Source: a virus. From it: a DNA stretch of 64,000 bases. Location of the stretch: IMG/VR virus record IMGVR_UViG_3300028115_001816, positions 13,864 to 77,863 of that record. The stretch is one strand, 5' to 3'. Position numbers and translations under genes: made by a program. Positions 23,144 through 44,294 of this stretch are shown here, piece by piece (position 1 is the stretch's first letter; every line of letters begins with the position of its first letter). Below the pieces are notes generated by a model. It was not told where the DNA came from. It did not search any database and saw only the letters and a list, made by a program, of their open reading frames with translations.

Positions 23144-23172
23144 TTGACAGGCGCTACGGCGCCTGTTATAAT
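23144..23172 (+). promoter_or_regulatory. Consensus sigma70 promoter TTGACA-N17-TATAAT
   Basis: TTGACA 23144-23149, TATAAT 23167-23172, exact 17-bp spacer. Confidence 0.85.
23147..23166 (+). terminator. Stable hairpin ACAGGCGC-TACG-GCGCCTGT, possible terminator or RNA 3' stabiliser of the tail transcript
   Basis: Perfect 8-bp stem with a cUACGg tetraloop just after the last structural gene; weak U-tract. Confidence 0.55.
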
Positions 23173-25107: not shown

Positions 25108-25372
25108 AGCACAACATGTATTCGAGTCTGCACCACCTCCAGAAATACGTTTGTATTATAATCAAGAAGGTGTTATACTTGATAAAAAATATGTAAAAAA
25201 GGATTTATCCGAAAACAAAACTTACATTGTAATTACACAAGAACAGTATGATGCAATCAATTTTGAAAGACATCGTGTAATAGATAAAGAATTAGTTTGG
25301 ATAACGCCTAAAAAAACAAACTGGTTTTTAAAACAGGAAGAATTAGCAAGGAATCCTTATGTCAAAGATTGA
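25088..25372 (+). CDS. Hypothetical protein (94 aa)
   Basis: Overlaps both neighbours in the operon. Confidence 0.6.
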   Translation: MSSSFFEAQHVFESAPPPEIRLYYNQEGVILDKKYVKKDLSENKTYIVITQEQYDAINFERHRVIDKELVWITPKKTNWFLKQEELARNPYVKD

Positions 25373-26270
25373 TGTAGCAGATTTAGATTGTATATATCTA
25401 AGTTATGATGAACCTAAAAAAGAAGAGTTCTGGGCTAAGATACAAAACATGGTACCCTGGGCAAAACGTGTTGACGGCGTTAAAGGATCTGATGCTGCAC
25501 ACAAAGCAGCAGCCAGTGCTAGTGATACTGAGCGTTTTGTACTAATAGATGGCGACAATATGCCTTATCCAGAATTTTTCGATATAACTTTAGATATAAA
25601 ACCTGAACATGAAGACTGTGTATTTCGTTGGAAAGCAGTGAACGCAGTCAACGGACTTATGTATGGTAACGGAGGTATAAGTTGTTGGACACGTGAGTTT
25701 GTAAACAACATGCAGACACATGAAAATAGCAATGGAGCAGATGAAAACGAAGTAGAGTTTTGTTATGATCCAAAATATTTGGCTATGAATAATGTTTATA
25801 GCACCACGCATCCTAATGGTGATGAGTTCCACGCATGGAGAGCAGGATTTAGAGAAGGTGTAAAGATGTGTTTGAAGAAAGGCACAAAGCCTAGTCTGTT
25901 AGAATTTAACGAAATGGTTCATCGCAGTAACTTTGATAGACTAAGCATATGGCACAACATAGGTGCTGACGCAGAATATGGTGATAGTTGTATAGCAGGT
26001 GCTAGATATGGTACTTACAGGACAATGCTTACTGAATGGGATTACACAGAAGTACAAGACTTTTACCATTTAGGCGAAATATACAGTGAATGGAAGACTG
26101 TTGATCAAACAAACATAAACAAGTTATTACAAACACGTTTAGGATTACACATAAGTGAGTTTACAAGTGAACAGAGTAAATTTTTTAAAAAACACTACTA
26201 CAATACCTATACAAAATCAGATCCTATGACATTAGAAATAGATATGCTAAGAAAGTCTGAAGGATGGTAA
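25359..26270 (+). CDS. GT-A fold glycosyltransferase-like protein (SYDE family)
   Basis: YLSYDEP...RVDGVKGSDAAHKAAA...FVLIDGDN (DxD); AWRAGFREGVK; paralog of the C-terminal half of 44405-45646. Confidence 0.6.
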   Translation: MSKIDVADLDCIYLSYDEPKKEEFWAKIQNMVPWAKRVDGVKGSDAAHKAAASASDTERFVLIDGDNMPYPEFFDITLDIKPEHEDCVFRWKAVNAVNGLMYGNGGISCWTREFVNNMQTHENSNGADENEVEFCYDPKYLAMNNVYSTTHPNGDEFHAWRAGFREGVKMCLKKGTKPSLLEFNEMVHRSNFDRLSIWHNIGADAEYGDSCIAGARYGTYRTMLTEWDYTEVQDFYHLGEIYSEWKTVDQTNINKLLQTRLGLHISEFTSEQSKFFKKHYYNTYTKSDPMTLEIDMLRKSEGW

Positions 26271-27238
26271 CAATAGATATTACGCCTTACTGTGGAGCAT
26301 CTAGGAATTGGAATACTGAAATATTAGCCTGTAAGATTGCTCAAAACTCTAATGAAAAAATTATATTAGACCTCAAACATGAGGGTTGGGATATAGTTGA
26401 AAATGGTATAGAACAAAAGGTAAAGATTATTTGTGATGAATTAAAAATACCTTACACACAAATAGAATTTAGAAGTAGTGATAGACTATGCAAAGCAAAA
26501 ACATTCAAACATAAAAATACTATCGAACTTTTAAACTTTTTTGCAAGACTTTTTCAACAAGATATTCAAATAGTTTTGCCTAATAAGTTTCAATATGGAT
26601 TATTCTGTGGTCGTGCAAGCAATGAAAGGTTATATGCCTTTTATCATCACAAAAATTGGAAGTATTCGAATAAAGGCAAAGCAAGTATGCATTTAGATGT
26701 TAATGATGTGCCGGAAGTTACTAGTGATTATGCAGAATTTATCATTGAGTATAACAAAAAATGGAAAGAACTATGTAAAATACTACCATATAGCGATGTA
26801 TCTCATTACATGAAACCTCCATTGCGTAGACAATCTGAAGACAAAAATCTATGGAATAACATTTATAAAGACATAGCAATAGAAATTGTTTGTGAAACAA
26901 ATACAACTCCAGATACTTTTTTCATGACTGAAAAAATTATACGTCCTATTGCATATGGAAAACTTTTTTTAGTAATAGGCAGTCCTAACTTTGAATTAAA
27001 TTTAAAACATATTGGCTTTGACATTTTTGATGATATTATTGACAAAAATTATGATAAAGAAAGTAGTTACATGAGAGTAGATAATGTTTTTCAAAGTTTA
27101 GAAAAGTTTTTAAGTAATCCAATAGATATAGAAGCATTACTGCCACGACTAGAAGCAAACAAAAAAGTTTTAAATAAATTACCAGTGACAATGGCTGGAA
27201 ACAAGATAGCAAAACTATTAGGACTTGATAATGAGTGA
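26264..27238 (+). CDS. Glycosyltransferase-like protein (TEK family, GT10/GT-B-like C-terminus)
   Basis: IEIVCET...FMTEKIIRPI...F...G...L...GF..FDDIID..YD shared with 30633 and 31615. Confidence 0.45.
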   Translation: MVTIDITPYCGASRNWNTEILACKIAQNSNEKIILDLKHEGWDIVENGIEQKVKIICDELKIPYTQIEFRSSDRLCKAKTFKHKNTIELLNFFARLFQQDIQIVLPNKFQYGLFCGRASNERLYAFYHHKNWKYSNKGKASMHLDVNDVPEVTSDYAEFIIEYNKKWKELCKILPYSDVSHYMKPPLRRQSEDKNLWNNIYKDIAIEIVCETNTTPDTFFMTEKIIRPIAYGKLFLVIGSPNFELNLKHIGFDIFDDIIDKNYDKESSYMRVDNVFQSLEKFLSNPIDIEALLPRLEANKKVLNKLPVTMAGNKIAKLLGLDNE

Positions 27239-28589
27239 TTACTATCAAGATGCACTTGTTGCAAAAGATAAATTAGCAAATATAAGTGATAGTTTCTGTT
27301 TGGCTAAATGGAAACAAGTAAGTCTGCATCTTACTACTGGACATACTAATAGTTGTTATCATCCTCCTTTACATAAAATTCCAATTGCACCACTCTGGGA
27401 TAATCCTAGTGCATTACATAATACAGAACACAAAAAACAAAGTCGCCGTGAAATGATGCAAGGCGTAAAATGTACAGATTGTAATTATTGTTGGAATATA
27501 GAAGCACAAGGTAACATAAGTGATAGGCATTATCGTAGTGGTGAGCCTTGGGCAATGGATAGTTTTGATGAAATAGTTGCTAATCCAGATGCAGATATAA
27601 ATCCTAGTTATGTAGAAGTTAATTTTAATAATGTTTGTAATCTTGCATGTAGTTATTGTTCACCACAATTTAGTAGTACATGGACAAAAGAAACTAATTC
27701 ACTAGGTGCATGGCCCACTACTACACCTCATAATGCTCCAGAACACTTTACAGGTGAACGCAGAGCAATACCTAACAGAGAAGAAAATCCATACAGAGAA
27801 GCATTTTGGCGTTGGTGGCCTGACCTATATAAAGATTTAAAACATTTTCGTATGACAGGAGGCGAACCTACTATGGATCCAAACACTTACCGTGTGTTTG
27901 ACTATGTGCTTGAGAATCCCAAAACAGATCTTCATCTAAATACTACAAGTAATTTTAGCGTTGAAGAAAAGATATGGCAAAAGTACAAGTCGTATGTTCA
28001 GCGACTATGTCAAGGTCAACAAATAGAGCATTTTATGCAATTTGTCAGTCTCGATACTTGGGGTTCTCAAGCAGAATACATTAGACATGGTTTAAACTTT
28101 GACCTTGCGATAAATAGATGTGAAGAGTTTGTTAGAGATGTACCATATAGAAGCAGTCTAACATTCATCATCACAATGAACAACCTTAGTATTCTTTCAT
28201 TAAAAAAACTTTTAGAGTATATAGTATACTTGCGTAAAACATATACAGATACGTATCAACGTATTTGGTTCGATACACCGCTTTTGTATACACCAGAATG
28301 GCAAAGTTTACAAATACTTCCTAAAGAATTTAGTATTTTAATGGATGATATAGTGAAGTATATGGAAGATAACTTAGATGAAATGCATGGATTTAAAGAT
28401 TACGAAGTTCTTAAGATGAAGAGAGATAGAGATTGGATGTTAGCAGGTACAGAAAATGTAGAACGTAAAAGAGGTGACTTTTTTAAGTTTTTTAGCGAAC
28501 ATGATCGTCGCAGAGGAACAAACTTTTTAGAAACATTTCCTGAGATGGCAACTTTTTGGCAACAGTGCGAGTATTGGAGTAGTAAATGA
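27225..28589 (+). CDS. Radical SAM protein with N-terminal Twitch/SPASM-like domain
   Basis: CNLACSYC and TGGEP; N-terminal FCLAKW...SCYHP...CNYCW. Confidence 0.9.
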   Translation: MIMSDYYQDALVAKDKLANISDSFCLAKWKQVSLHLTTGHTNSCYHPPLHKIPIAPLWDNPSALHNTEHKKQSRREMMQGVKCTDCNYCWNIEAQGNISDRHYRSGEPWAMDSFDEIVANPDADINPSYVEVNFNNVCNLACSYCSPQFSSTWTKETNSLGAWPTTTPHNAPEHFTGERRAIPNREENPYREAFWRWWPDLYKDLKHFRMTGGEPTMDPNTYRVFDYVLENPKTDLHLNTTSNFSVEEKIWQKYKSYVQRLCQGQQIEHFMQFVSLDTWGSQAEYIRHGLNFDLAINRCEEFVRDVPYRSSLTFIITMNNLSILSLKKLLEYIVYLRKTYTDTYQRIWFDTPLLYTPEWQSLQILPKEFSILMDDIVKYMEDNLDEMHGFKDYEVLKMKRDRDWMLAGTENVERKRGDFFKFFSEHDRRRGTNFLETFPEMATFWQQCEYWSSK

Positions 28590-28963
28590 ATAGAATAAAA
28601 AAACTTAATCCTTCTATAAATCCTATTACGTTTAAGGACGGAAGAGGCATTATACAGACTTACCTGCCAGAAACAGATACAATAAAAGAATGGAACTATA
28701 TTGTTACACTTAAAGGTGCTGTAAGAGGACATCATTATCATAAAGAATTTGATGAATATATTATGTTTGTTGATGGTGAGGGTGTATACACTGAACTAAC
28801 AGATGGCAAAGAGCTAGTAACTCCAGTAGCATCTGGTGATTGTGTATACTTACCCATGCATGTACCACATACATTCTATCCTACTGCTGACTGCAAAATG
28901 ATTGCACTGATTACTAAAAGATGGGATAAATGCCAAGAACCTATAACAAAGGTACAGATATGA
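28586..28963 (+). CDS. Cupin, FdtA/WxcM-like sugar isomerase or epimerase
   Basis: VRGHHYH...E...PHTF cupin motif; adjacent to NDP-sugar SDRs. Confidence 0.65.
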   Translation: MNRIKKLNPSINPITFKDGRGIIQTYLPETDTIKEWNYIVTLKGAVRGHHYHKEFDEYIMFVDGEGVYTELTDGKELVTPVASGDCVYLPMHVPHTFYPTADCKMIALITKRWDKCQEPITKVQI

Positions 28964-29856
28964 AAATAATGATTACAGGTGCATTAGGTTATTTAGGCAC
29001 TCAACTTCTATCACAACTTGTTGATACTGATGTAGAAATAATAGCCATTGACAATAGCACTGAAGCAATATCAAGTCGATTAGGAAGTTTTTTATACAAC
29101 ACTAAATTTTCTTTTTACAATGTAAATGTAACCGATACACAGCGATTAAACGCATTGCCCAAAGTTGATTTAATTGTACATTTAGCCAGTGTGGTAGGAT
29201 ATATTAGTTGTAATATTACTCCTGGACTAGCACATGACACAAACGTAATAGGTACAGAAAATATTGCTAATTTAAATACTCCTGTTATATATCTAAGCAG
29301 TGGAAGTATATACGGTGAAATCGGAGACGTGTGCAATGAGGAAACACAAATTAATCCTAAAAGTCTATATGCCGAACATAAAGTTCTCGGCGAGAAGGCG
29401 GTAAGTCGCGTTTCCAATGTTATACTTAGACCTGCGACATTGTTTGGCTGTAGTTATAAGATCAGAGACGACTTACTGGTACACACACTGATACAAGACG
29501 CAGTTAGAACTAACTATATAGATTTATATCAGCCTTATGCTCGTAGAAGTTTTTATAGCGTCCGTAAAATGGCTAGTCTTTTAAAATATATATGTGAAAA
29601 TTACAGTAAATTTGAAGGTGAAGTAGTGAACGTAGGATGTGAAACCGGAAACCTTACTAAAAGACAGTTATGTGAAATTATTTCAAAATATACTAACACG
29701 GATATTAGAATAGTGCTTGGCCAGGATTTGGATAGTAGAGATTATAACATTGATTATGGAAAACTTAAATCTTTATGGTCAGAGTATGATGAAAATTTTG
29801 AATTACATATACCCAAATTGGTGAGATATTATGAAAATATTAGTAACAGGAAGTAG
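28960..29856 (+). CDS. NAD-dependent epimerase/dehydratase (extended SDR)
   Basis: ITGALGYLG, HLAS, SSGSIYG, YAEHK (YxxxK); start at ATG 28960 overlapping the cupin stop. Confidence 0.9.
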   Translation: MKIMITGALGYLGTQLLSQLVDTDVEIIAIDNSTEAISSRLGSFLYNTKFSFYNVNVTDTQRLNALPKVDLIVHLASVVGYISCNITPGLAHDTNVIGTENIANLNTPVIYLSSGSIYGEIGDVCNEETQINPKSLYAEHKVLGEKAVSRVSNVILRPATLFGCSYKIRDDLLVHTLIQDAVRTNYIDLYQPYARRSFYSVRKMASLLKYICENYSKFEGEVVNVGCETGNLTKRQLCEIISKYTNTDIRIVLGQDLDSRDYNIDYGKLKSLWSEYDENFELHIPKLVRYYENISNRK

Positions 29857-30643
29857 GGGTTTCTTCGGACAAAATTGTGTAAAGTATTTTACACAGCGTG
29901 GGCATAGTGTTACTGCTTGGACAGAAGATGTTAGAATAAGTATGCCTGATGAAAACTATGACGTTTTGATGCCATTTGCTTGTAAGATAGGCGGTCGTAA
30001 AGGTATGGATAACAAGGCCTTGATGATAGCGGGAAATGTTGAAATAGACAGATGCCAATTTTTGTGGGCAGAAAAGCACTGTGGCAGGATAGTATATCCA
30101 GGCAGTAGTAGTGCTTATCCACGTGAAGATTCAATATTCTTAGAGCATAGGGTAGGAAGCGACATTCCGTCGGACGATATATATGGACTTTACAATTATT
30201 TTAGTGAACGAATGCTTGCCCATTGTAGCATTCCTTCTAGCATTGTTAGACCAGTTAATGTATACGGACCTGGACAAAGTTTACACTATCCAATGCCTAG
30301 TATTATTGAACGTACAAAACGTGGAGAATGCAGTGTATGGGGTAGCGGAAAACAAGCACGAGATTGGATACACATTGATGATGTAATGCGTATATTTGAA
30401 TACTGTGCTACTAGCAATGAAAATATTATAGTTAACGCCGGTTGTGGGACGGCAATAACTTTTATAGAACTTGCTGAAACTGTGTATCGTATTATACACG
30501 GGCATACTATACCAGTAATAACAGATCCTTCTCAACCCGAAGGCCCATTATATAGGCAAGCAGATATCACACGATTAGAAAGTTTTGGATTGCTTCCCCT
30601 TATTAGTTTACAAGAAGGTATTAAGGGAATGATTGATGCTTGA
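29831..30643 (+). CDS. NAD-dependent epimerase/dehydratase (extended SDR), atypical catalytic motif
   Basis: VTGSRGFFG, SSSAY, RPVNVYGPG, RDWIHIDD; YxxxK reads YGLYN. Confidence 0.85.
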   Translation: MKILVTGSRGFFGQNCVKYFTQRGHSVTAWTEDVRISMPDENYDVLMPFACKIGGRKGMDNKALMIAGNVEIDRCQFLWAEKHCGRIVYPGSSSAYPREDSIFLEHRVGSDIPSDDIYGLYNYFSERMLAHCSIPSSIVRPVNVYGPGQSLHYPMPSIIERTKRGECSVWGSGKQARDWIHIDDVMRIFEYCATSNENIIVNAGCGTAITFIELAETVYRIIHGHTIPVITDPSQPEGPLYRQADITRLESFGLLPLISLQEGIKGMIDA

Positions 30644-31676
30644 AAAAGTTGGAATTCACTTTCCTAAAGATTGGCAATATGGACCTGAAGAAATACATAT
30701 ATTTGATAGCACTGCAAAACAAGTAGACAAACAGTTTCCTAATGATCGTAATCTAGTTATAAACACTACTTGGTTTGGTCCTCAATTTTCTAATGGCGAA
30801 TGGAAAAAGGCTAACAGTTTTGATCAAGATTTTGATAATCTATTCTTGCTTAGTGTAATAGATCCTTTACACTTGCAAAATGAAGACTTAGATTTGCTAA
30901 TAAAGAAATATAACATAAAAAATGTTTATAGGATAGGAATGTTTGAAGGCAGTGAGCACGAATGGAACTTTCATGCGTTAATCGGCAAGGATCTGATGCC
31001 CAATTATACTGAAGAACAAGTGCTAATGCAAGATCCTACATATATCTATATGCTTTATCAACGTAAACCAAGATATCATAGAATAGAAATAACGGAGATA
31101 CTTAGACAACGTAATTTATTACAAGATGGAATAGTTACATTAGGAGGACCAGATTCTGAAACAAAGTGGGAAGGTCATCATAAAGATTGGGAAGTTTTAA
31201 AAATCGAAGATTATCCAGAGAATTATTTAGGTACAGGAGGTCCAAAAGATGCATTTGGCGGAGTGCCTGATGATTTAGTAACAGTTGGCAGACTAGATTT
31301 ATGGCAATCCCATTTTTTAAATATATCTAGCGAAACAGTGTTTGATGAATGGGAACCGTTATTAGTCACAGAAAAGATGTGGAAACCTATTATTGGGCTA
31401 AGACCTTTCATAGTGCATGGAAACCCTAAAACATATTCTTGGATGAGAAAAAATGGTTTCAAAACATTTAATAATTACTGGAAACATATTGATGTGGAAA
31501 ATCTTGGTGCTCATGATACTGTTTATAGAGTTATAGAATTTCTAAAAACACAAGATCTATCAAAAATGTACATTGACATGTTAGCAGACTTACGCTACAA
31601 TAAAGAACGATTTTATGAGTTTAGTAGCGAGCAAGAATATAAAATGGAGAACATTTTTGAAAATTATAAGCCCTAA
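30633..31676 (+). CDS. Glycosyltransferase-like protein (TEK family)
   Basis: YQRKPRYHR; NISSET...VTEKMWKPIIGLRPF..G.......GFKTF. Confidence 0.45.
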   Translation: MMLEKVGIHFPKDWQYGPEEIHIFDSTAKQVDKQFPNDRNLVINTTWFGPQFSNGEWKKANSFDQDFDNLFLLSVIDPLHLQNEDLDLLIKKYNIKNVYRIGMFEGSEHEWNFHALIGKDLMPNYTEEQVLMQDPTYIYMLYQRKPRYHRIEITEILRQRNLLQDGIVTLGGPDSETKWEGHHKDWEVLKIEDYPENYLGTGGPKDAFGGVPDDLVTVGRLDLWQSHFLNISSETVFDEWEPLLVTEKMWKPIIGLRPFIVHGNPKTYSWMRKNGFKTFNNYWKHIDVENLGAHDTVYRVIEFLKTQDLSKMYIDMLADLRYNKERFYEFSSEQEYKMENIFENYKP

Positions 31677-32757
31677 TATTTTTTTCCCTCGTATGCTTTT
31701 GGAAGAATATAAAGAATATTTTGAAAAAGCACATAGTAAACTAAGTCCTTGTGATAGTATCTTTGTTTGTATGTTCGATGATATAAAAAGTTATGCTTTT
31801 ACCCAAAATAAGGTTATTATATTTTATATAGATACTTTTTTTGATCATAGACAAATTGAAGATTATGTTGAAGTTTTTAATTTACATAAAGATAAACAAT
31901 TTTATGTTTTTTCAGATAAGTTCAATTTACAGTCTGATATGTATGCACCAAATTGTAAACATTTTCAAATAGGATTAGGTGATCAAAGTGTTCTACAATT
32001 AGGCACACATGCTACCGCAGTTGAGGATAAGAATTTTGATAGTGACTGTATTGGTATTTCTTTAAATAGACAACCTAGAAATTTTAGGTTAATGCTTATC
32101 TCTTATTTACTAGGCATAAATTTTAATCAACATTGTAGGATTACTGCACCATTACTACAGACAAGAATTAAAGAAGAGAAAAATATTCTAAATATATGTA
32201 ATTATGATTTTTATGACTACACAGATACTATACTAAAGGGTTGGGAAAAAGCCAAACAAAATGATGGAATAACAGATACAACTGATGCGTGGGAGCCTAT
32301 TAATGTAAAGGAAAAAGTAAAGTCTGATGAGACAGTAAATCCTTTAGAAAATTATAATCTTAGACTAACACCAATGTTTAAAAACAGTTTTGTTGAGGTT
32401 GTGTGTGAAACGAACTACGATTACAATTTTTCCTGTATCACTGAAAAAACAATGCAAAACCAATTAGGAAAAAATTTTCCACTATATATGTGCAATACTG
32501 GGTATGTAAAATACTTACGTGATAATGGTTTTGATTGTTTTGATGATATTATAGACCACTCTTATGATAAAGAGACAGATCCAATTTTGCGAATGGTAAA
32601 AATGATACAAGATAATAAAATGTTGTTTATTGATACAGAAAAAACCAAAAACCTGTGGATTAAAAATAGTAATAGGTTTGATTACAATGTAAAATGCTTA
32701 GTTAAAATATATACTGATATAAGTAATAAAATTAAGAATGTATTAGATGAATTGTGA
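31615..32757 (+). CDS. Glycosyltransferase-like protein (TEK family); true start probably TTG near 31657
   Basis: SLNRQPRNFR; VEVVCET...ITEKT...GFDCFDDIIDHSYD. Confidence 0.45.
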   Translation: MSLVASKNIKWRTFLKIISPNIFFPRMLLEEYKEYFEKAHSKLSPCDSIFVCMFDDIKSYAFTQNKVIIFYIDTFFDHRQIEDYVEVFNLHKDKQFYVFSDKFNLQSDMYAPNCKHFQIGLGDQSVLQLGTHATAVEDKNFDSDCIGISLNRQPRNFRLMLISYLLGINFNQHCRITAPLLQTRIKEEKNILNICNYDFYDYTDTILKGWEKAKQNDGITDTTDAWEPINVKEKVKSDETVNPLENYNLRLTPMFKNSFVEVVCETNYDYNFSCITEKTMQNQLGKNFPLYMCNTGYVKYLRDNGFDCFDDIIDHSYDKETDPILRMVKMIQDNKMLFIDTEKTKNLWIKNSNRFDYNVKCLVKIYTDISNKIKNVLDEL

Positions 32758-34249
32758 TATCTTGTTAATAAATGTTCCAAGGATAAGTTTGGTATATCCT
32801 CCTGCAGGCACAAGTTTACTGAAAGGGGTTGTAGAACAACAAGGATTTACCTGTACTGTAAAGGATGCAAACTTTGAATTATTAGATAGCATTAAAGATC
32901 CAGATGATTTTGAAACAATTACAAATTATTTTACTATCCCTAATGCAGAAATTACTACAAATTGTCAAAATATTATAGACGAATGGTATACTGACCTTGT
33001 AAATTATATACTTAAACTTAATCCTAAACATGTTGGTATAAGTGTTTTTACATTTGAATGTCAGGTTGCTACTCGTGAACTTTGTAAACTTTTAAGGCAA
33101 GTTTATAATGGTAAAATTATAATAGGAGGTGCTGGATTAAGTACTACAGGTATTGCAACACAAGTAAATGACTTTGGAAATAACCTTTTAGAAAATAATC
33201 TAGTAGATTATTACGTTAGAGGTGAAGGAGAACTTGCACTTGTTGATATATTAAAAGAAAATAAAGGTGCAGGCATAAACAATGACAATTATATTCAAAT
33301 TGAAGACCTTAATAGTTTAGCATATCCAAATTATGATGATGTTATCAAGTACAAATACCATTATGCAATAGAGAATATACAACTTCCAATAACAACTAGC
33401 AGAGGTTGTGTAAGACGTTGCAGTTTTTGTGATATACATGCATTTTGGAAAAAGTATACATATAGATCTGGCGAAAATATTGCAAAGGAAATGGTTAGTC
33501 ATTATGAAAAATATGGTGTACGTGACTTTTTCTTTACAGATAGTTTAATTAATGGCAATCTTAAAAGTTTTAGACAATTATGTGATTGCTTGGTGACGTA
33601 TTATGAAGAAAACAATTTGCCAGACAGATTTTTTAGTTGGGGAGGACAATGGATTGTAAGAACAGAAAAACATTTGAGTCCAGATGACTATAAAAATGCT
33701 GCACGTAGTGGTATGAATGGACTTGCAATGGGTGTTGAAAGCCTAAGTGAGCAAGTTCGTAAGGATATGAATAAAGGATTTAAGAACGAAGACATAGATT
33801 ATACACTTGAACAGTTTAGATTACATAGTATTAACTGTTATTTTCTAATGATTGTAGGATATCCAACAGAAACTGAAGAACATCACTTAGAAACAATGCA
33901 GAACTTTGTAAAATATCAAGGATATGCTATAGATGGTACAATATTTGGAGTAAACTTGGGAGGAACACTTAGTATTGACGAAGGAAGTCCTCTACATCAA
34001 GATAGTATACACTTTGGACTAGAACCTACTACAGAAAATGAAGAATTATTTGGATTAGATTGGACAAGCAAAGAAAATCCAAAACTTACACTACTGGAAA
34101 GAATAAATCGACGAATTGACCTACAGGAATTACTTATGGATTTAGGATATACTGTATGGAACGGTGATCACCAATTAAAAAGACTTAAAGCAAGTTATGA
34201 GCGTATTAAACAAAATACCTATCACTTTAAAGATATACTACACTCATAG
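32747..34249 (+). CDS. Cobalamin-binding radical SAM enzyme (class B methyltransferase-like)
   Basis: N-terminal B12-binding fold (PPAG..LLK, VGISVF, IIIGGAG, GEGE); SRGCVRRCSFC; GVESLS; MIVGYPTET. Confidence 0.88.
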   Translation: MNCDILLINVPRISLVYPPAGTSLLKGVVEQQGFTCTVKDANFELLDSIKDPDDFETITNYFTIPNAEITTNCQNIIDEWYTDLVNYILKLNPKHVGISVFTFECQVATRELCKLLRQVYNGKIIIGGAGLSTTGIATQVNDFGNNLLENNLVDYYVRGEGELALVDILKENKGAGINNDNYIQIEDLNSLAYPNYDDVIKYKYHYAIENIQLPITTSRGCVRRCSFCDIHAFWKKYTYRSGENIAKEMVSHYEKYGVRDFFFTDSLINGNLKSFRQLCDCLVTYYEENNLPDRFFSWGGQWIVRTEKHLSPDDYKNAARSGMNGLAMGVESLSEQVRKDMNKGFKNEDIDYTLEQFRLHSINCYFLMIVGYPTETEEHHLETMQNFVKYQGYAIDGTIFGVNLGGTLSIDEGSPLHQDSIHFGLEPTTENEELFGLDWTSKENPKLTLLERINRRIDLQELLMDLGYTVWNGDHQLKRLKASYERIKQNTYHFKDILHS

Positions 34250-34706
34250 TGGACATGAAAATGGCTGGCCACTATGTAGAGTCCTATGGGATAACAAACA
34301 AGTAGCAAACTTTAAAGCAGATGGACAAGAGATTGAATTTACTGTGATGCCTAAACCTAAAGGTACAAGCACACTAATTGTAGAACATTATGGAAAAAAT
34401 GTATATGAAGAACACGATAAATTTATAGAAATAATAGGTATGAGAATAAACAATATTCCTTTAAAGAATATACTATGGGAATCTACACAGTATCCTATTA
34501 CTGCACCATGGGACGAACCTTGGCAAGAAGAAGGAAACTTATATCTAGGTCATAATGGCCATATAGTGTGGCACTTTAGTAATCCAGTTTTACTAGACAT
34601 ACAAAATAGATTAGGTGTTAAGAAGAAACCACAAGAAGGGCAGGAAAGCACTAAGAAAGTTTTACAAGAAATAAAAGAATATTTTAGAAATGAAAAAGAT
34701 AGATAA
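34197..34706 (+). CDS. Hypothetical protein (beta-rich, rSAM-associated)
   Basis: Overlaps the B12-rSAM; YLGHNG..W.F resembles 35325-35630. Confidence 0.6.
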   Translation: MSVLNKIPITLKIYYTHSGHENGWPLCRVLWDNKQVANFKADGQEIEFTVMPKPKGTSTLIVEHYGKNVYEEHDKFIEIIGMRINNIPLKNILWESTQYPITAPWDEPWQEEGNLYLGHNGHIVWHFSNPVLLDIQNRLGVKKKPQEGQESTKKVLQEIKEYFRNEKDR

Positions 34707-35328
34707 TTTTTTTACAGAAAACGATTGTAAGTGGTTTCAATGGTATCATAACGTTTTGCCAGAGTCTAGAGATAACGGACTACGTATACAAACTATGACA
34801 CATTTTGCACAACCATTTTTTGCTAGAAAGTTAAAACAAATACAAAGTTTACTTCCAGATAATGAAGAAGTTACTACATTGAATATAAATTTTGATTATG
34901 GTGCAGGCGGAATACATAGCGATGGATATCTCGAGCATGATAAAAATGATAAAATTGCAAATAGTTATCTAATACCTATTCAAGTCCATCCTACAGACAA
35001 GTATTACACAGTAATTTTCGAACAAACTAGTATGGAAGCAATTACGTTCAATGGTGAACTTGGACTAGGAGATAAAGGTATAACAACTTATAGGCAAGTG
35101 TCTAGGGAAGAATTTGGATTAAGTAACGAACCTTTTGATAAAGATGTTTATAATAAGTATCTTACTCATTTAAATTATGATGCACTAAAAGGTTTGACAG
35201 TTGCACACATTCATGCATGGACACTAGGCAGTGCTATGACTTGGCCCAGACAAAACTTTCATGTTAGTGCAAACTTTATAAACAAGGACACAAGAGCAAG
35301 TGTATTAATTGTTACGAGATATAAATGA
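34690..35328 (+). CDS. 2OG-Fe(II)/cupin-like oxygenase
   Basis: GIHSDG (HxD) plus distal His in RQNFHVS. Confidence 0.5.
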   Translation: MKKIDNFFTENDCKWFQWYHNVLPESRDNGLRIQTMTHFAQPFFARKLKQIQSLLPDNEEVTTLNINFDYGAGGIHSDGYLEHDKNDKIANSYLIPIQVHPTDKYYTVIFEQTSMEAITFNGELGLGDKGITTYRQVSREEFGLSNEPFDKDVYNKYLTHLNYDALKGLTVAHIHAWTLGSAMTWPRQNFHVSANFINKDTRASVLIVTRYK

Positions 35329-35630
35329 TAGAATTCGAATTCGAAAACAACGGTAGTTTAGAATATGAAGTTACACTCACAAACAATGGTGCTAAGATAA
35401 GATTCTTTGGAAAAAATTATAGTACAAATACAGAAGATCATGTTATAATAAAGAATATAATTTATAAAGATTTAATTTTACCAGAACTTTTTGGATACAC
35501 AAAAATGACAACAGACAATAAAGATTATGCTAACTTAACTAATGTAAATTATATTTCATTTAATGGTATATGGGAATTAAAATTTACAGAACAAGATATT
35601 AAAAATATACTAAAGAAGAAACTTACATGA
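35325..35630 (+). CDS. Hypothetical protein (101 aa)
   Basis: ATGA overlaps on both sides; YISFNGIWELKF. Confidence 0.6.
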   Translation: MIEFEFENNGSLEYEVTLTNNGAKIRFFGKNYSTNTEDHVIIKNIIYKDLILPELFGYTKMTTDNKDYANLTNVNYISFNGIWELKFTEQDIKNILKKKLT

Positions 35631-37027
35631 CTGAAGGTAATCCAGAAAATAATTTAGAACGTATTTTACAAAACACATTACCGCCACATGATTTCAAACG
35701 TGAGCATTTGGATACAAGAAGTGCAAGTTTTTGTGGTGCAAAATGGTATAATGCTACAGTATGGCTTGGTAGTGGCATGACAACTAGTTGTCATCATCCA
35801 TTACCACATAAAATAGATGCAGAAGCAGTCAAAACAAATCCTAAACTGTTACACAATACTCCTGAGAAAAAAGAACAACGCAGACAAATGCAGTGTGGCG
35901 AAAGACCTGCAGGATGTGAATACTGCTGGAAAATTGAGGACATGGGTCCTGACCATATAAGTGATAGAATTTATAAAAGTTGGATATATACAGATGAGGA
36001 ACTTACTGATGCATTTACAACAGACTATAAAGAAGATTTTGAACTTAGAAGTCTTGAAATCGCCTTTGATAGAACATGCAATTTTGCTTGCAGTTATTGT
36101 AATCCTGCGTTTTCAAGCACATGGGTAAAAGATATAAACAATAAAGGACCATACCAAAATCTGCAAAGTGATGGTAGAGGACATTTCATACATCCACATG
36201 ATAGTAACCAGTTGTATGGATACGGAGAGTATAATCCATATGTAGAAGCATTCTTTAAATGGTGGGAAAGTGATTTACATAAAACACTAAGGCAATTAAG
36301 AGTAACAGGTGGCGAACCACTAATGAGTGCAGACTTATGGAAACTTATAGAATGGTTTGAAAAGAATGGCGATAAAAGTCAAACAAGTTTAGCAATTAAT
36401 AGTAATTTAGTAGCAAAACCAGAATTAATACAAAGACTTGTTGATGTTAAATCTCACTTGCCAAGTTTAGGTGTTTACAGTAGTTGCGAAGCAGTAGATT
36501 CTAGTGCAGAATATATTCGTGATGGTATGGTATTTGATCAGTGGTGGCAAAACATGCAAAAATTACATGAAGCAGATATTGACACACATTGTATGATGAC
36601 AATAAATGCACTTTGTTTAGAAACGTTGCCTGAACTTGTGGATCGTATAATGCAAAAGCGAAAAGAGTATAATGGTAATAGATTTGCAATAATGAGTTTC
36701 AATATACTAAGATTTCCAAGTTTTCAAAGTCCTTTAGTGCTGAGCAATGAAATAAAAAAATATCATGTAGAGAAACTTACTGAACTTAGAAAAAAGTGGG
36801 CACCTAAGTATCTTAATAGGAGTGATTGTTTTCATGAGTTTGAACTAGGACAGTTGGATAGACTTATAGAATATTTACAAGTAGTAGATAAGCCACACAG
36901 TGAAGGTTTTGATATGCCTAGATTACACAATGACTTCAAACAATTTTACACACAATATGATATTAGACGCAACAAAAATTTTACAAAAACTTTTCCAGAA
37001 TTAGAAGAATGGTATGAGTCGCTCTAA
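35627..37027 (+). CDS. Radical SAM protein with N-terminal Twitch/SPASM-like domain
   Basis: CNFACSYC, TGGEP; FCGAKW...SCHHP...CEYCW; closest paralog of 27225. Confidence 0.9.
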   Translation: MTEGNPENNLERILQNTLPPHDFKREHLDTRSASFCGAKWYNATVWLGSGMTTSCHHPLPHKIDAEAVKTNPKLLHNTPEKKEQRRQMQCGERPAGCEYCWKIEDMGPDHISDRIYKSWIYTDEELTDAFTTDYKEDFELRSLEIAFDRTCNFACSYCNPAFSSTWVKDINNKGPYQNLQSDGRGHFIHPHDSNQLYGYGEYNPYVEAFFKWWESDLHKTLRQLRVTGGEPLMSADLWKLIEWFEKNGDKSQTSLAINSNLVAKPELIQRLVDVKSHLPSLGVYSSCEAVDSSAEYIRDGMVFDQWWQNMQKLHEADIDTHCMMTINALCLETLPELVDRIMQKRKEYNGNRFAIMSFNILRFPSFQSPLVLSNEIKKYHVEKLTELRKKWAPKYLNRSDCFHEFELGQLDRLIEYLQVVDKPHSEGFDMPRLHNDFKQFYTQYDIRRNKNFTKTFPELEEWYESL

Positions 37028-38318
37028 AACAGAAAAATATTACGAAACTTACGACTACAATAGTAGGAGGCCAGTCTTTGTAGAATTAGAATCCTTACGT
37101 GATGATCAACAAAAAAAATTAATTGAAAGTAAGTATTTTTGTATGATTCCTTGGACACATATACACGGATTTCCAACAGGAGAAGCATACCCTTGTTGTT
37201 TAGGTGAGATGAAACACCCTATTGGAAACATGAGAGAAAATACTCTAGAGGAAATATGGAATGGTGAGCAATATACACAAATGCGTACTAATATGCTTGC
37301 AGACAGGCCTTGTAAAGAGTGTACACGTTGTTACGAACAAGAAGAACAAGGATTTTTTAGTATGCGTAATAGCAGTAATAAACATTTCGGACATCATATA
37401 CATAAAGTAGATCAAGGAATTAATCCAAATTTTGAATTAGTCTATTGGGATATACGTTTTAGTAATCAATGTAATTTAAAATGTCGTAGTTGTGGTCCTA
37501 TGTTTAGTAGTTTATGGTATGATGATCATGTAAAAATGCATGGACAACCTCCTAATCATAAACGTATAGAATGGGCCGGGCGTAACAAGAATGATATTTG
37601 GGAACAAATGATCCCACATATAGACCATATAGAGCAAATATATTTTGCAGGTGGTGAACCACTTATAATGCAAGAGCATTACAATATACTTAAAGAATTA
37701 GTAAAAAGAGAAAAGTTTGATGTAAAGTTAATATATAATACAAACTTTAATGAAACATTGTATAAAGATTTAGATGTACTAGATTATTGGGGAATGTTTG
37801 ATAGCGTTAGTGTAGGTGCAAGTTTAGATGCTAGTGGCAATCGTGCAGAACTAATGCGTAAAGGTTGTGACTGGAATAAAATTACTGCTAACAGAGAACG
37901 TATGTTAAAAAAATGTCCAAAAGTAGATTTTTATATTAGTCCTACACTAAGTTTAATGAATGTAGATCATATACCAGACTTTCATAAGGATTGGGTAGAG
38001 CGTGGTTTGTTGAAACCACAAGATTTAAATATAAACATTTTACAGAGTCCAGATTGGTATCGTGTAGATTGTTTACCAGATAATATTAAAAAGGATTTAA
38101 CACATAAATTAAATGAACATATAAACTGGTTAAGTCCTAAAGATAATTTGCAAAGAGCAACAAACGGATTCAAAAGTCTTATAAGTTTTATGAATGCACA
38201 AGATAATACAACTCATTTAGAAAAGTTCAATCAAGTAACAACTCAATTAGACAAAGTAAGGATAGAAAATTTTTATAAAGTCTTTCCAGAGTTAGAAAGT
38301 CTAAAACAGTATGCATAA
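37014..38318 (+). CDS. Radical SAM protein with N-terminal Twitch/SPASM domain
   Basis: FCMIPW...YPCC...IGN....LEEIWNG...CTRC; CNLKCRSC; AGGEP. Confidence 0.9.
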   Translation: MSRSKTEKYYETYDYNSRRPVFVELESLRDDQQKKLIESKYFCMIPWTHIHGFPTGEAYPCCLGEMKHPIGNMRENTLEEIWNGEQYTQMRTNMLADRPCKECTRCYEQEEQGFFSMRNSSNKHFGHHIHKVDQGINPNFELVYWDIRFSNQCNLKCRSCGPMFSSLWYDDHVKMHGQPPNHKRIEWAGRNKNDIWEQMIPHIDHIEQIYFAGGEPLIMQEHYNILKELVKREKFDVKLIYNTNFNETLYKDLDVLDYWGMFDSVSVGASLDASGNRAELMRKGCDWNKITANRERMLKKCPKVDFYISPTLSLMNVDHIPDFHKDWVERGLLKPQDLNINILQSPDWYRVDCLPDNIKKDLTHKLNEHINWLSPKDNLQRATNGFKSLISFMNAQDNTTHLEKFNQVTTQLDKVRIENFYKVFPELESLKQYA

Positions 38319-39480
38319 ATGTATATTACCATGGATTAGTATAGAAGCAACACCTATGGGAACAACAAGACCCTGTTGTTTATATACAGACGAAATACCA
38401 AATATCAATCTTAAAAATAGTACACTAGACGATGCTTTTAATAGTAGAACTATGCGTGATTTAAGACGTAGTTTTAGAAGAGGTGAAAAGCCTGAAGGAT
38501 GTAGGAATTGTTGGCGTGAAGAAGATGCAGGGAAAAAAAGCAAGCGGCAATATATGTTAGATAAGTTTAAACATTTAAATGTTGAATATAAAGACAACAA
38601 GGGTGAGAAACTTCTATTTTTAGACTTAAAATTAGGAAACATTTGTAACTTAAAATGTCGTATTTGTGGAAGCTGGAGTAGTAGTAAATGGGCACAAGAA
38701 GAATGGGATTACACAGGAAAACATAAAGATCATATAGCAAAAAAGTGGCTAAAGGACGGGCAGTGGGTAAGAAAATCGCCTAACTTTTGGAAAAACTTAG
38801 ATGAATTATTACCACAAATAAAATACTTTGAATTTACTGGTGGTGAGCCTTGGATGATAAAACAACATTTTGAATTATTACAACGTGCAGTTGAACAAGG
38901 TTTTGCAAAAGATATTGACATTCATTACAATACAAACACTACACAGTACCCAAAAGATCCAACTATATGGAAATATTTTAAACATGTACAGATTGCGTTT
39001 AGTGTAGACAACACAAAAGAACGTTTTGAGTATGAGCGTTATGGCGCAAAATGGAAAACATCAAATTCTAATATAAAAAAAGTTCATAGGTTGCGTGAAC
39101 AAGGATATCCAATTACTACACAATTGTGTTGTACATGGAACATACAAAATATTTTTTATTTAGATGAAATATTAACTTGGGCATACACAATGGACTTTGA
39201 TAATATACATTTTAATCTTATGCATGATCCTTGGGAATTTAGTTTAAATTGTACCCCAAAAACTGCAAGAGCTCCTCTAATGCTTTATTTGCAAAAACAA
39301 CAGATAAAACATAAGAAATATGCAACAGATATTCATGCTCTTAAACAAATTATTGTTGATAGTACTCACGAATCTAGTGATGATATAACAAAAAGATTAA
39401 GACGTACAGACTTATATCGTAATCAAAATTTTGCAATAAGTCATAGTAAAATTGCAAAGGCTATAAACTATGAACTCTAA
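38311..39480 (+). CDS. Radical SAM protein with N-terminal Twitch/SPASM domain
   Basis: CILPW...RPCC...CRNCW; CNLKCRIC; TGGEP. Confidence 0.9.
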   Translation: MHKCILPWISIEATPMGTTRPCCLYTDEIPNINLKNSTLDDAFNSRTMRDLRRSFRRGEKPEGCRNCWREEDAGKKSKRQYMLDKFKHLNVEYKDNKGEKLLFLDLKLGNICNLKCRICGSWSSSKWAQEEWDYTGKHKDHIAKKWLKDGQWVRKSPNFWKNLDELLPQIKYFEFTGGEPWMIKQHFELLQRAVEQGFAKDIDIHYNTNTTQYPKDPTIWKYFKHVQIAFSVDNTKERFEYERYGAKWKTSNSNIKKVHRLREQGYPITTQLCCTWNIQNIFYLDEILTWAYTMDFDNIHFNLMHDPWEFSLNCTPKTARAPLMLYLQKQQIKHKKYATDIHALKQIIVDSTHESSDDITKRLRRTDLYRNQNFAISHSKIAKAINYEL

Positions 39481-40747
39481 ACCTGAAAATTTATGTATGG
39501 CTCCTTGGACTCATACATATCTTAGTCCACAAACAGAACGCAGACTGTGTTGTGCTAGTCGTGAACCTGCACAAAATTTTAAACAGTATATCGATACTGC
39601 AGAAGGCACAAACGAATATAAACCACAGCCATTAGAAGAATATTGGAACAGTGAAAATATTAGGCGTATTCGTATACAGATGCTAAACAACGAAGTTCCT
39701 CCTGAATGTGTAGTATGTGATAAAAAATTATTAAACCAAGATGTATATAGAGATTATTTTAGTCATTTGTTTGCACACAAATGGCACGAAATAATTCCTA
39801 GCACAGATGAGACAGGCCATACTACTATGAAGCCTGTAAGTTGGGATTACCGTTTTAGCAACTTATGTAATTTTAAATGTAGAATGTGTGGTCCTATGTT
39901 GAGCAGTGCTTGGGAAACAGAAGCACGTAAGCAAGGCAAAATAGAACCTTGGATGGAAAAACCTGTAAAACGTAAAATAGAAGAATTCCAAAAAAACACA
40001 GTTGAACAAGAATTCTCAGATGCAGTTGAAGAACATAGAGTAGAAGAAATTTACTGGGTAGGTGGAGAACCACTTATGTACGAACAACACTGGCGTTATA
40101 TGCAACGTATAATTGAATTAGGAGATGGCCCAGGTTTATATGCACGTTACAATACTAATTTGCATAGGGTAAATTATAAAGGTATTAATCTTTATCAGGA
40201 TATATTGGATAATATTCGTGATTGGCAAATATGTGCAAGTTTAGATGGAACAGGCAAAATTGGAGAGTACATTAGAACAGGTTTAGATTATAATGTATGG
40301 TTAGAAAATTTTAAACAAGGATTAGCACACAGTAGAAACAGACGCATGATGCGTATAGATTTCACTTTAACATTACCGGGTTTATTTGATATAGTAAATA
40401 TATGTAGATTAGCACGTGAACTAGATGTTGATATACTTGCTAAAGTAACTTTTGCATTTACACCAGATATTGCAATGAGTCCACTTTTCCTACCTAAAGA
40501 TATATTACATTCATATATAAATGAATTGTTATTGACAAGTGAAGTGGATAATATTACAATTAGAAATATGCTTGTAAGTTTATTAGAGCGACCTACATTT
40601 GAAGAAGAATTTCCTGATGAATATGCAAAAGCAAGAATCAAAGGCAAATGGCGTATGCAAGCAATGGATAATTTACGTGGTCGTATGAAGTTTGAAGATA
40701 CACTTAAGACGCAACAAGCAAAAGACTTTTGGAATGGAATTTGTTAG
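39470..40747 (+). CDS. Radical SAM protein with N-terminal Twitch/SPASM domain
   Basis: CMAPW...LCC...CVVC; CNFKCRMC; VGGEP. Confidence 0.9.
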   Translation: MNSKPENLCMAPWTHTYLSPQTERRLCCASREPAQNFKQYIDTAEGTNEYKPQPLEEYWNSENIRRIRIQMLNNEVPPECVVCDKKLLNQDVYRDYFSHLFAHKWHEIIPSTDETGHTTMKPVSWDYRFSNLCNFKCRMCGPMLSSAWETEARKQGKIEPWMEKPVKRKIEEFQKNTVEQEFSDAVEEHRVEEIYWVGGEPLMYEQHWRYMQRIIELGDGPGLYARYNTNLHRVNYKGINLYQDILDNIRDWQICASLDGTGKIGEYIRTGLDYNVWLENFKQGLAHSRNRRMMRIDFTLTLPGLFDIVNICRLARELDVDILAKVTFAFTPDIAMSPLFLPKDILHSYINELLLTSEVDNITIRNMLVSLLERPTFEEEFPDEYAKARIKGKWRMQAMDNLRGRMKFEDTLKTQQAKDFWNGIC

Positions 40748-41203
40748 ATGAAAATATTAATATGTGGTTTGCCTGGTAGTGGCAAGAGTACACTTGCAAA
40801 ACCTTTTGCAGAATTGCTAGGCGGTGTATGGATAAACGCAGATCAAGTAAGAGAACAATATGACGATTGGGACTTCTCGCCTGAAGGCAGAATACGCCAA
40901 GCACAACGCATGAGATATTTAAGTGATGGTGTTTTAAGAGCAGGAGGTATTGCAGTTGCTGATTTTGTTTGTCCAACTGAAAAGGCACGTAAAGAGTTTG
41001 ATGCAGATTATGTAGTTTGGATGGATACTATTAAAGAAGGTCGGTTTGAAGACACTAATAAAATGTTTGAAAAGCCAACAGACGTAAATTATCACGTAGC
41101 AGATTGGTTTGATGATACACATGCACAATTACTTGAAGTAGTACAAAATTACATGCGTATGAAAGAAGGATTACCAACCCTACCTATAGGAGTAAAAAAA
41201 TGA
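40748..41203 (+). CDS. Adenylylsulfate (APS) kinase-like P-loop kinase
   Basis: GLPGSGKST; NADQVR; DFSPEGRIRQ; ADFVCP....R; FEKP, all matching the CysC pattern. Confidence 0.75.
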   Translation: MKILICGLPGSGKSTLAKPFAELLGGVWINADQVREQYDDWDFSPEGRIRQAQRMRYLSDGVLRAGGIAVADFVCPTEKARKEFDADYVVWMDTIKEGRFEDTNKMFEKPTDVNYHVADWFDDTHAQLLEVVQNYMRMKEGLPTLPIGVKK

Positions 41204-41616
41204 GTTTTGATTGGAAAAAACCCACAGTACAAATGCTTGGTAGATGGCAACCCTGGCATGAAGGACATACACAATTGTTTGAACGTGCAATAGAGATAAC
41301 AGGACAAGTTTGTATTATGGTTCGTGATGTAGGTGGAATAATTGGCGAAGATGCAGGTGCAGGAAGAACAATAAAACAAGATGATAATCCTTTTGATTTT
41401 GATAAAGTTTCTGAAGATATTGCAGGAAAATTATTTACCAGAGGATATATAATAGGTGAAGAATTTGAAGTAATGCTAGTTCCTAATATTGTAGATATTA
41501 GTTACGGAAGAGGTGTAGGTTATACATTTACAGAACATGACTTAGGAGAACGTGTTCATAATATTAGTGCAACTAAAATAAGAAAAGAAATGAGAGAAAA
41601 TGGTGAATTGGATTAG
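41200..41616 (+). CDS. HxGH nucleotidyltransferase (cytidylyltransferase/NMNAT-like)
   Basis: LGRWQPWHEGH, DNPF, ISATKIR. Confidence 0.8.
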   Translation: MSFDWKKPTVQMLGRWQPWHEGHTQLFERAIEITGQVCIMVRDVGGIIGEDAGAGRTIKQDDNPFDFDKVSEDIAGKLFTRGYIIGEEFEVMLVPNIVDISYGRGVGYTFTEHDLGERVHNISATKIRKEMRENGELD

Positions 41617-42363: not shown

Positions 42364-42468
42364 ATGATAAATTGGGTCAAAAGTATTATTAATAAAATTA
42401 AACTTGAAATACGCTATAGAAAGCGTTTGAAAGAATTAAGAAAAAGGGATCCATTTATATACAAATGA
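42364..42468 (+). CDS. Small protein (34 aa, MINWVKSIINKIKLEIRYRKRLKELRKRDPFIYK), not in the ORF track
   Basis: Translated by hand; AGGA upstream; its TGA overlaps the carbamoyltransferase ATG (ATGA). Confidence 0.75.
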   Translation: MINWVKSIINKIKLEIRYRKRLKELRKRDPFIYK

Positions 42469-43979: not shown

Positions 43980-44294
43980 ATGGTAGATGAAAACGAATTA
44001 AGACAAAGAGTAATTGAATCACTACAAACAGTGTACGATCCTGAAATGCCCAGTGTAAGTGTATATGATTTAGGACTTATATATAAAATAGAAATAAAAG
44101 ATGACTGGGTTGGCATAGAACACACACTTACCAGTATGGCTTGTCCTTTTGCTGATCAAATTTGTGCAGACATAGAAAATGCAGTAATGACCACACCTGG
44201 TGTTCGTGCTATTGATAGACAGTTGGTATTTGAACCTACATTTACAATGGAAATGGTTCCTGAAGAAACTAAACTAATTATGGGATGGTACTAA
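43980..44294 (+). CDS. DUF59 / SufT-PaaD-like Fe-S cluster maturation protein
   Basis: VYDPEM..SVYDLGLIY...TLTSMACP. Confidence 0.9.
   Translation: MVDENELRQRVIESLQTVYDPEMPSVSVYDLGLIYKIEIKDDWVGIEHTLTSMACPFADQICADIENAVMTTPGVRAIDRQLVFEPTFTMEMVPEETKLIMGWY

Follow-up and report, generated by a model that had tools for sequence, protein, structure and literature searches.

A conserved cassette of five N-terminal-twitch radical SAM proteins with a putative glycosyltransferase and a carbamoyltransferase in the tail-fiber region of uncultured aquatic phages

INTRODUCTION

In the canonical radical S-adenosylmethionine (SAM) enzymes anSME, BtrN, MoaA and PqqE, the auxiliary iron-sulfur (Fe-S) domain lies C-terminal to the barrel. 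Here we describe five radical SAM genes, W1 to W5, whose products differ in that this domain is located before the barrel. They are carried by a 64,000-nucleotide stretch (hereafter the window), which comprises bases 13864-77863 of the 77.9-kb IMG/VR virus record IMGVR_UViG_3300028115_001816. Together with the open reading frame (ORF) ORF303, which encodes a putative glycosyltransferase of the GT-A fold, and the gene of a carbamoyltransferase, W1 to W5 form a conserved module in the tail-fiber region. An initial annotation of the window had described the five proteins as a rearranged, phage-expanded family that performs sequential radical chemistry on sugars or a glycoconjugate, possibly as hetero-oligomers.

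The closest described group is the NCBIfam family NF033640 (N_Twi_rSAM, "twitch domain-containing radical SAM protein"), the name of which describes the same N-terminal twitch and radical SAM core, and W1 to W5 match it end to end. This entry consists of a name only, and the set of five orthogroups with its GT-A-fold and carbamoyltransferase partners lies outside the family definition. Sets of N-terminal Cys residues have also been noted by RadicalSAM.org within the SPASM/twitch megacluster (PMC9477430). In the literature, of which subscription-only papers were not covered, we found no N_Twi_rSAM member characterized by reaction, substrate or structure; nor did the proteins fall into a characterized family with an unrelated substrate, an outcome that had been named beforehand as a test of the initial annotation.

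Two sugar-related enzymes provide the nearest comparisons. BtrN, the 2-deoxy-scyllo-inosamine dehydrogenase of butirosin (PDB 4m7s and 4m7t), likewise has one four-Cys auxiliary domain and a sugar-like substrate, and its Cys pattern (C-x17/18-C-x41-44-C-x2-C) aligns residue for residue with the twitch of the W proteins, although the similarity is weak. However, the twitch of BtrN is C-terminal, and this protein of about 250 aa lacks the helical C-terminal region of about 100 residues that bears the D..R..NF..FPE motif of the W proteins. BlsE (cytosylglucuronate decarboxylase, PDB 7vob), a twitch-type enzyme acting on a sugar acid, gave the best match to the W3 core (Z 12.6 over 221 residues), but the likeness is confined to the barrel, at 13% identity, and is tied with those of CteB (Z 12.4), anSME (12.2), SkfB (12.0) and MoaA (11.6). 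The BlsE-type model TIGR04466 scored just 13-15 bits against its cut-off of 400.

Radical SAM genes have been reported from phages before. Nishimura et al. 2017 described a marine T4-like genome with many radical SAM genes and paaD (DUF59) (PMC5332604), and in the host-recognition clusters of pelagimyophages, radical SAM cassettes lie in the region behind the fiber genes (PMC7029224). Unlike the analysis of the present set, these two reports give gene counts only, without family assignment, orthogroups or mechanism.

RESULTS

W1 to W5 are paralogues of one radical SAM family

The five ORFs picked out by the initial annotation are all intact, full-length and on the plus strand (Table 1). Each of them spans NF033640 from profile positions 1-5 to 391-398, with scores above the curated cut-off of 170 bits, and a six-frame search of the record agrees. 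Every protein contains one CxxxCxxC motif (at residues 138, 151, 153, 112 and 133 in W1 to W5, respectively) as well as GGEP. The Cys motif and the SAM-binding GGE motif are invariant in a 96-sequence alignment and in every orthologue, which places the five proteins in the radical SAM superfamily; Pfam PF04055 also matches all of them, in three cases above its cut-off.

The paralogues are 20-33% identical over their full length, and therefore the features shared by the five ORFs are far beyond chance. The two subtypes expected from the motifs were recovered, with AKW/SCxHP in subtype A (W1 and W2) and PW/CC in subtype B (W3 to W5), and in a maximum-likelihood tree a branch with support 100 splits the two. 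W2 to W5 are indeed tandem and consecutive, W2 overlapping W3 by 14 nt, W3 overlapping W4 by 8 nt and W4 overlapping W5 by 11 nt. As for the C-terminal D..R...F motif that had been attributed to all five, it is exact in W1 to W4, while W5 has the loose version DNLRGRMKF, the D of which is not conserved among W5 orthologues.

The twitch domain is N-terminal

The presence of a Cys-rich auxiliary module ahead of CxxxCxxC, as had been proposed, was borne out by invariant Cys residues, by matches to SPASM and by the end-to-end fit to NF033640. In all five proteins the twitch domain lies within residues 4-110, ahead of the CxxxCxxC motif (112-160). Four N-terminal Cys residues (C25, C44, C86 and C89 in W1 numbering) are common to the five paralogues and are also invariant in the 96-sequence alignment and in all 21-25 distinct orthologues of each gene. 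Thus, Cys 25/44/86/89 and 138/142/145 of W1 are kept in 21/21 orthologues, and the twitch and core Cys of W2 in 24/24. Within orthogroups, subtype B keeps a fifth N-terminal Cys, forming the "CC" pair, and subtype A keeps four only. Pfam SPASM (PF13186) matches the N-termini of W3 to W5 with E values of 8.8e-14 to 1.7e-4, the lowest belonging to W3 (residues 43-106).

When a profile was built from the five paralogues, its N-terminal segment matched BtrN in the C-terminal twitch (E 5.6e-4). When the N-terminal piece of W3 alone was searched against the whole PDB, BtrN was the only match (single-sequence E 0.11), while the N-terminal piece of subtype A alone found no match in the PDB. The twitch Cys of W3 fall on positions 169, 187, 232 and 235 of the BtrN chain, which we take to be its auxiliary-cluster ligands. 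The W proteins therefore have what defines a twitch domain, i.e., three to four conserved Cys on a hairpin and helix module homologous to SPASM; a full SPASM domain, with two auxiliary clusters and seven or eight conserved Cys, was not found, as the conserved N-terminal Cys number four or five. Judging from this number, the domain fits one fully Cys-ligated auxiliary cluster of the twitch type and not the two-cluster SPASM arrangement. The domain order can thus be called rearranged, as proposed, but the layout is one already catalogued as NF033640.

The AlphaFold2 (AF2) model of W3 is confident, with a predicted local distance difference test score (pLDDT) of 93.7 and a predicted template modeling score (pTM) of 0.90. 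In this model, a hairpin (residues 49-59) and a helix (101-111) flank the Cys residues and are followed by a linker helix, the barrel and the helical C-terminal region. Fold searches with Foldseek and VIA-align aligned only the barrel, the nearest structures being enzymes of the SPASM/twitch clade.

Five old orthogroups are kept together, mostly on phage contigs

A scan of viral contigs yielded 24 related loci, in which orthology was assigned by best-hit analysis. Nearly all of these loci carry four to seven family members, and the five W genes define five orthogroups, as orthologues share 41-86% identity, compared with the far lower values between paralogues given above. Identities were 57-85% for W1 (21 loci), 53-71% for W2, 41-78% for W4 and 58-82% for W5 (22 loci each), W4 being the fastest-evolving of the five. 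The gene order W1-W2-W3-W4-W5 was observed in 23/23 close viral loci, and all five genes are present in each of the 20 close loci that are not cut by a contig end. In the maximum-likelihood tree, each orthogroup forms one side of a branch with support of 88-100, and further sequences of environmental and bacterial origin fall between the five. Because these well-supported orthogroups alternate with other relatives, the tree indicates that W1 to W5 are ancient lineages kept together and not the outcome of a recent burst.

The same quintet was also found on contigs filed as metagenome-assembled genomes (MAGs) of many phyla, with GC contents of 0.29-0.50, and in three of the MAG-binned contigs W5 stands ahead of W4. 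Quintet-bearing contigs (L032, L034, L035, L036, L037 and L038) are filed under MAGs of six phyla. Two of them, both from a "Haliscomenobacter sp." MAG (L036, its contig 1, and L037, its contig 3), have a phage baseplate wedge gene 25-30 kb from the quintet and are therefore phage DNA; in the genomes of L032 and L034, such a gene is present on other contigs only. The quintet contigs in bacterial MAGs thus look like mis-binned phage contigs.

Species-representative genomes were scanned with an alignment of W3 only, because a mixed-paralogue alignment was too diverse. A single family copy above the cut-off was found in three of the four bacterial genomes sampled, namely those of Cytophagales, Mangrovivirga and one other. 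Contig 13 (66 kb) of a Spirochaetaceae MAG (L042) has three N_Twi_rSAM genes above the cut-off and several weaker radical SAM matches, and no phage baseplate match was found in this genome, so that L042 may be a bacterial multi-copy island. The label "phage-expanded" in the initial annotation therefore holds in that multi-copy sets occur mostly on phage contigs, but it does not hold as a recent burst, since the five orthogroups are old and separately conserved.

The family as a whole is large: the W3 search gave more than 7,500 matches, which is a lower bound, and the W2 search gave 4,573 clusters at 50% identity (E <= 0.001). Among culturable phages, gene 349 of Ralstonia phage RsoM2USA is a subtype A member (296 bits against the five-sequence profile), and genes 0303-0308 of Vibrio phage K566 include a single cluster of four genes that resemble subtype B but are diverged. 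A tblastn search with W3 retrieved just four phage records, all distant, and megablast with the 13.5-kb stretch as query gave no match among cultured phages.

A putative glycosyltransferase and a carbamoyltransferase are constant partners

Seven genes recur in 21-23 of the 24 viral loci, namely the five radical SAM genes, ORF303 and a carbamoyltransferase of the NodU/CmcH type. ORF303 orthologues (59-76% identity) were found in 21/24 loci, and in many of these the gene immediately precedes W1. ORF303 had no match in Pfam, NCBIfam or PHROG, nor among PDB sequences when searched with its profile, and its nearest ESM Atlas clusters are viral only. Its AF2 model (pLDDT 86.6, pTM 0.82) found GT-A glycosyltransferases as the top Foldseek matches, including RmlT, the PBCV-1 capsid glycosyltransferase A64R and STIV A197, at TM scores of 0.2-0.33. 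A distant paralogue, ORF413, is longer at the N-terminus and does not retain the DxD position; it gave no Pfam or PHROG match, and its orthologues occur in 11 loci.

The carbamoyltransferase has both domains of the NodU/CmcH family (117.6 and 171.7 bits), matches phrog_1601 ("Nol-like carbamoyltransferase") and has orthologues of 51-72% identity in 21 loci. It is not NodU itself, as it scored 134 bits with the NodU equivalog against a cut-off of 1000.

Fusion proteins, read among the representatives of the W2 search clusters, gave additional information on this association. One family relative has a C-terminal glycosyltransferase family 2 (GT2) domain (P0125) and another an N-terminal GT2/GT7C domain (P0168, with three independent members); these fusions tie the N_Twi_rSAM family to sugar transfer. 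Radical SAM genes are also fused to each other. P0121 (950 aa), which joins a W1-like and a W2-like protein, was seen at its full length in four assemblies; the fusion is triple in P0133 (1,203 aa) and double in P0140 and P0154. In the viral locus L013 (9980-12535), W3 and W4 share one 851-aa frame with both halves complete. These sequences give a hint that neighboring paralogues may work in physical contact; accordingly the hetero-oligomers of the initial annotation gain slight support from the natural W1-W2 and W3-W4 fusions.

Neighboring genes and phage setting

From about 23.2 to 45.6 kb of the window, every gene is on the plus strand and tightly packed, and this island stands directly behind the tail-fiber-like genes. 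The window starts with a gp6-like baseplate wedge gene, followed by an ORF of 4,422 aa and then the fiber-like genes. The wedge protein is nearest to those of the jumbo myoviruses XaC1, Atu_ph07, RaK2 and SCTP-2 (33-37% identity). Near-identical DNA is carried by salt-marsh metagenomes, and seawater metagenomes gave partial matches. The source is an uncultured giant phage of salt-marsh or marine origin, and the clade that carries the module consists of uncultured large aquatic myoviruses.

A sigma-70-like site at the head of the island is the sole perfect consensus match in 20 kb and may serve as a lead only, as promoter-like sites overall are not above shuffled expectation; no convincing terminator was found within 22.5-42.4 kb. 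Contigs from four RNA libraries are at least 95% (mostly at least 99%) identical to the island and cover 21-27 of 30 bins, which is at most a weak hint of transcription, as contigs cannot show transcription.

W1 and W2 are separated in the window by an insert, while in most related loci their spacing ranges from directly adjacent to about 3 kb. The B12-binding radical SAM gene within this insert has C- and P-methyltransferase families as its best NCBIfam matches, all below cut-off, and an orthologue in one related locus only (L011). Downstream of W5, the kinase and the nucleotidyltransferase-like ORF are found in only 4-5 related loci, with sub-threshold NCBIfam matches. The DUF59 gene follows the carbamoyltransferase directly and was found in 7/24 related loci; its product might serve to deliver Fe-S clusters specifically to the six cluster-rich enzymes. 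Beyond the island, the aminotransferase of the convergent nucleoside diphosphate (NDP)-sugar trio scored 210 bits with PseC, below the cut-off. Further away, among replication and nucleotide-metabolism genes, an ORF of 427 aa (52370-53653, minus strand) matches the PHROG "HNH endonuclease" phrog_1314 (E 1e-100).

Table 1. Positions of the W genes, their partners and other features in the window
Feature	Position	Strand	Evidence or remark
W1, N-terminal-twitch radical SAM, subtype A (CxAKW...SCxHP...CxxCW)	27225-28589	+	NF033640, 314.8 bits
W2, N-terminal-twitch radical SAM, subtype A	35627-37027	+	NF033640, 308.5 bits
W3, N-terminal-twitch radical SAM, subtype B (CxxPW...CC...CxxC)	37014-38318	+	NF033640, 399.4 bits
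W4, N-terminal-twitch radical SAM, subtype B	38311-39480	+	NF033640, 323.9 bits
W5, N-terminal-twitch radical SAM, subtype B	39470-40747	+	NF033640, 297.1 bits
ORF303, putative GT-A-fold glycosyltransferase, DGD motif	25359-26270	+	AF2 model and Foldseek
Carbamoyltransferase, NodU/CmcH type	42465-43979	+	Pfam Carbam_trans_N (E 1e-33), Carbam_trans_C (E 1e-50)
ORF413, distant ORF303 paralogue	44405-45646	+	23% identity to ORF303
W1-W2 insert, about 7 kb: cupin, two SDR epimerase/dehydratases, three unknown ORFs, B12 radical SAM, three small ORFs	28586-35630	+	Pfam
B12-binding radical SAM (B12-binding and Radical_SAM domains)	32747-34249	+	Inside W1-W2 insert
APS-kinase-like P-loop kinase	40748-41203	+	Pfam AAA_33/APS_kinase; accessory
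Small HxGH nucleotidyltransferase-like ORF	41200-41616	+	Weak CTP_transf_like; accessory
DUF59 (FeS_assembly_P, SufT/PaaD-like) Fe-S assembly protein	43980-44294	+	PF01883, E 1.2e-17
NDP-sugar trio, convergent: GFO/IDH/MocA oxidoreductase, PseC/DegT-like aminotransferase, SDR epimerase/dehydratase	45619-48415	-	Abuts island
ThyX	49402-50064		After NDP-sugar trio
ORF of 4,422 aa	3901-17169		Between baseplate wedge gene and fiber-like genes
Promoter-like site, sigma-70 consensus TTGACA-17-TATAAT with TG (extended -10)	23144-23172	+	12/12 matches; head of island

DISCUSSION

According to the above-described analysis, we think it somewhat probable that the module tailors a sugar or glycan, with the five twitch radical SAM enzymes each carrying out one C-H-directed step and the product being carbamoylated. 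In this scheme, each W protein is predicted to hold a SAM-cleaving [4Fe-4S] cluster on CxxxCxxC and, on the twitch domain before the barrel, one auxiliary [4Fe-4S] cluster with all of its ligands supplied by the four Cys. W1 to W5 would be five non-redundant enzymes that act step by step on C-H bonds of a sugar or glycan by radical chemistry, and the reactions may be oxidations, epimerizations or the like, comparable to those of the twitch enzymes BtrN and BlsE. The carbamoyltransferase would further carbamoylate the radical SAM product, and the end product would be found on the virion or on the envelope of the infected cell.

We infer a sugar substrate from the GT2-fused relatives, the GT-A fold of ORF303, the surrounding NDP-sugar enzymes and the co-conserved carbamoyltransferase, so that the sugars or glycoconjugates of the initial annotation are circumstantially supported. 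That the five enzymes would be non-redundant follows from the branch support of their orthogroups and from the presence of all five in every untruncated close locus, while the start-to-stop overlaps of the four tandem genes and the W1-W2, W3-W4 and triple fusions hint that they work together.

Several observations weigh against this assignment. No family member with a known reaction was found, so that the chemistry is an extrapolation from relatives that are distant; the GT-A matches of the ORF303 model are low in TM score; and the NDP-sugar genes next to the cassette vary and are missing from most related loci, the genes of the W1-W2 insert being found in 0-5 of 24. In addition, single-copy bacterial relatives sit in unrelated contexts, near carotenoid genes or PolA, and among the fold neighbors of W3, modifiers of peptides and proteins (SkfB, CteB, anSME and SuiB) are as many as sugar enzymes (BlsE and BtrN), with tied Z scores.

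This last point bears on an unlikely alternative, in which the five enzymes would modify a protein or peptide, introducing cross-links or epimerizations into tail-fiber or virion proteins or into an unrecognized precursor of a peptide made by ribosomes and modified after translation (RiPP). Most SPASM/twitch enzymes modify proteins or peptides, SkfB, CteB, SuiB, anSME and StsB are among the top fold and sequence neighbors, the cassette lies directly behind tail-fiber-like genes, and one relative (P0160) is fused to a subtilase fragment. However, no conserved small ORF was found in or beside the cassette in the 24 loci, and none of the real ORFs, whether in the window or in these loci, has a Ser/Cys-rich tail, the matches being in antisense frames only, though a precursor may be encoded elsewhere. 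W1 to W5 have no Pfam match to PqqD or the RiPP recognition element (RRE), and the C-terminal region of the W3 model is purely helical. Moreover, the genes that constantly accompany the cassette encode a GT-A-fold protein and an O-carbamoyltransferase, and relatives are fused to GT2 domains.

Less likely still, and in our view improbable, is that the module makes or edits a small molecule other than a glycan, such as a lipid, cofactor or secondary metabolite, in an auxiliary pathway apart from surface sugars. Carbamoyltransferases of the NodU/CmcH type also serve antibiotic and toxin pathways, as TobZ, NovN and SxtI do, and the carotenoid genes near single-copy bacterial relatives would agree with such a role. 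Weak matches to the lipid synthase GDGT-MAS/Tes point in the same direction but are far below the family cut-offs, and the post-fiber position and the GT-A and GT2 links fit a glycan better.

It is very unlikely that the module serves to hypermodify nucleotides or phage DNA by way of a base glycosylated or carbamoylated via radical steps. For such a role, phage carbamoyltransferases and glycosyltransferases are known to act on 5-hydroxymethylcytosine, ThyX is 9 kb away, and W1 to W5 have weak viperin-like matches of 18-27 bits. However, the cut-offs of the viperin-like models NF038283 and TIGR04278 are 180 and 450 bits, no gene for a hydroxymethylase or a TET-like protein turned up in the ORFs that were scanned, and the module lies in the fiber region and not with replication genes.

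Returning to glycan tailoring, a bolder version of it, which we regard as speculative, is that a heteromeric radical SAM assembly, with the W1/W2 and W3/W4 pairs to which the natural fusions point, edits a glycan after its assembly, at unactivated C-H bonds in several positions and by epimerization or oxidation, the glycan being carried by the phage's own fibers or the infected cell. If true, such heteromeric glycan editing would be new enzymology and a new form of surface-sugar remodeling by phages of oxic waters, with the DUF59 helper in support.

The family had been catalogued and marine phages with multiple radical SAM genes had been reported in passing, and the present analysis finds that the commonest multi-copy form of NF033640 seen is a phage cassette, intact across salt marsh, sea and fresh water. 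Since relatives exist in the culturable phages RsoM2USA and K566, the question of its product is testable. Assigning that product would give chemistry to thousands of orphan radical SAM genes and could reveal new radical carbohydrate reactions; meanwhile, it would explain why large aquatic phages carry 6-7 kb or more of oxygen-sensitive enzymes, together with an Fe-S helper, near their host-recognition genes.

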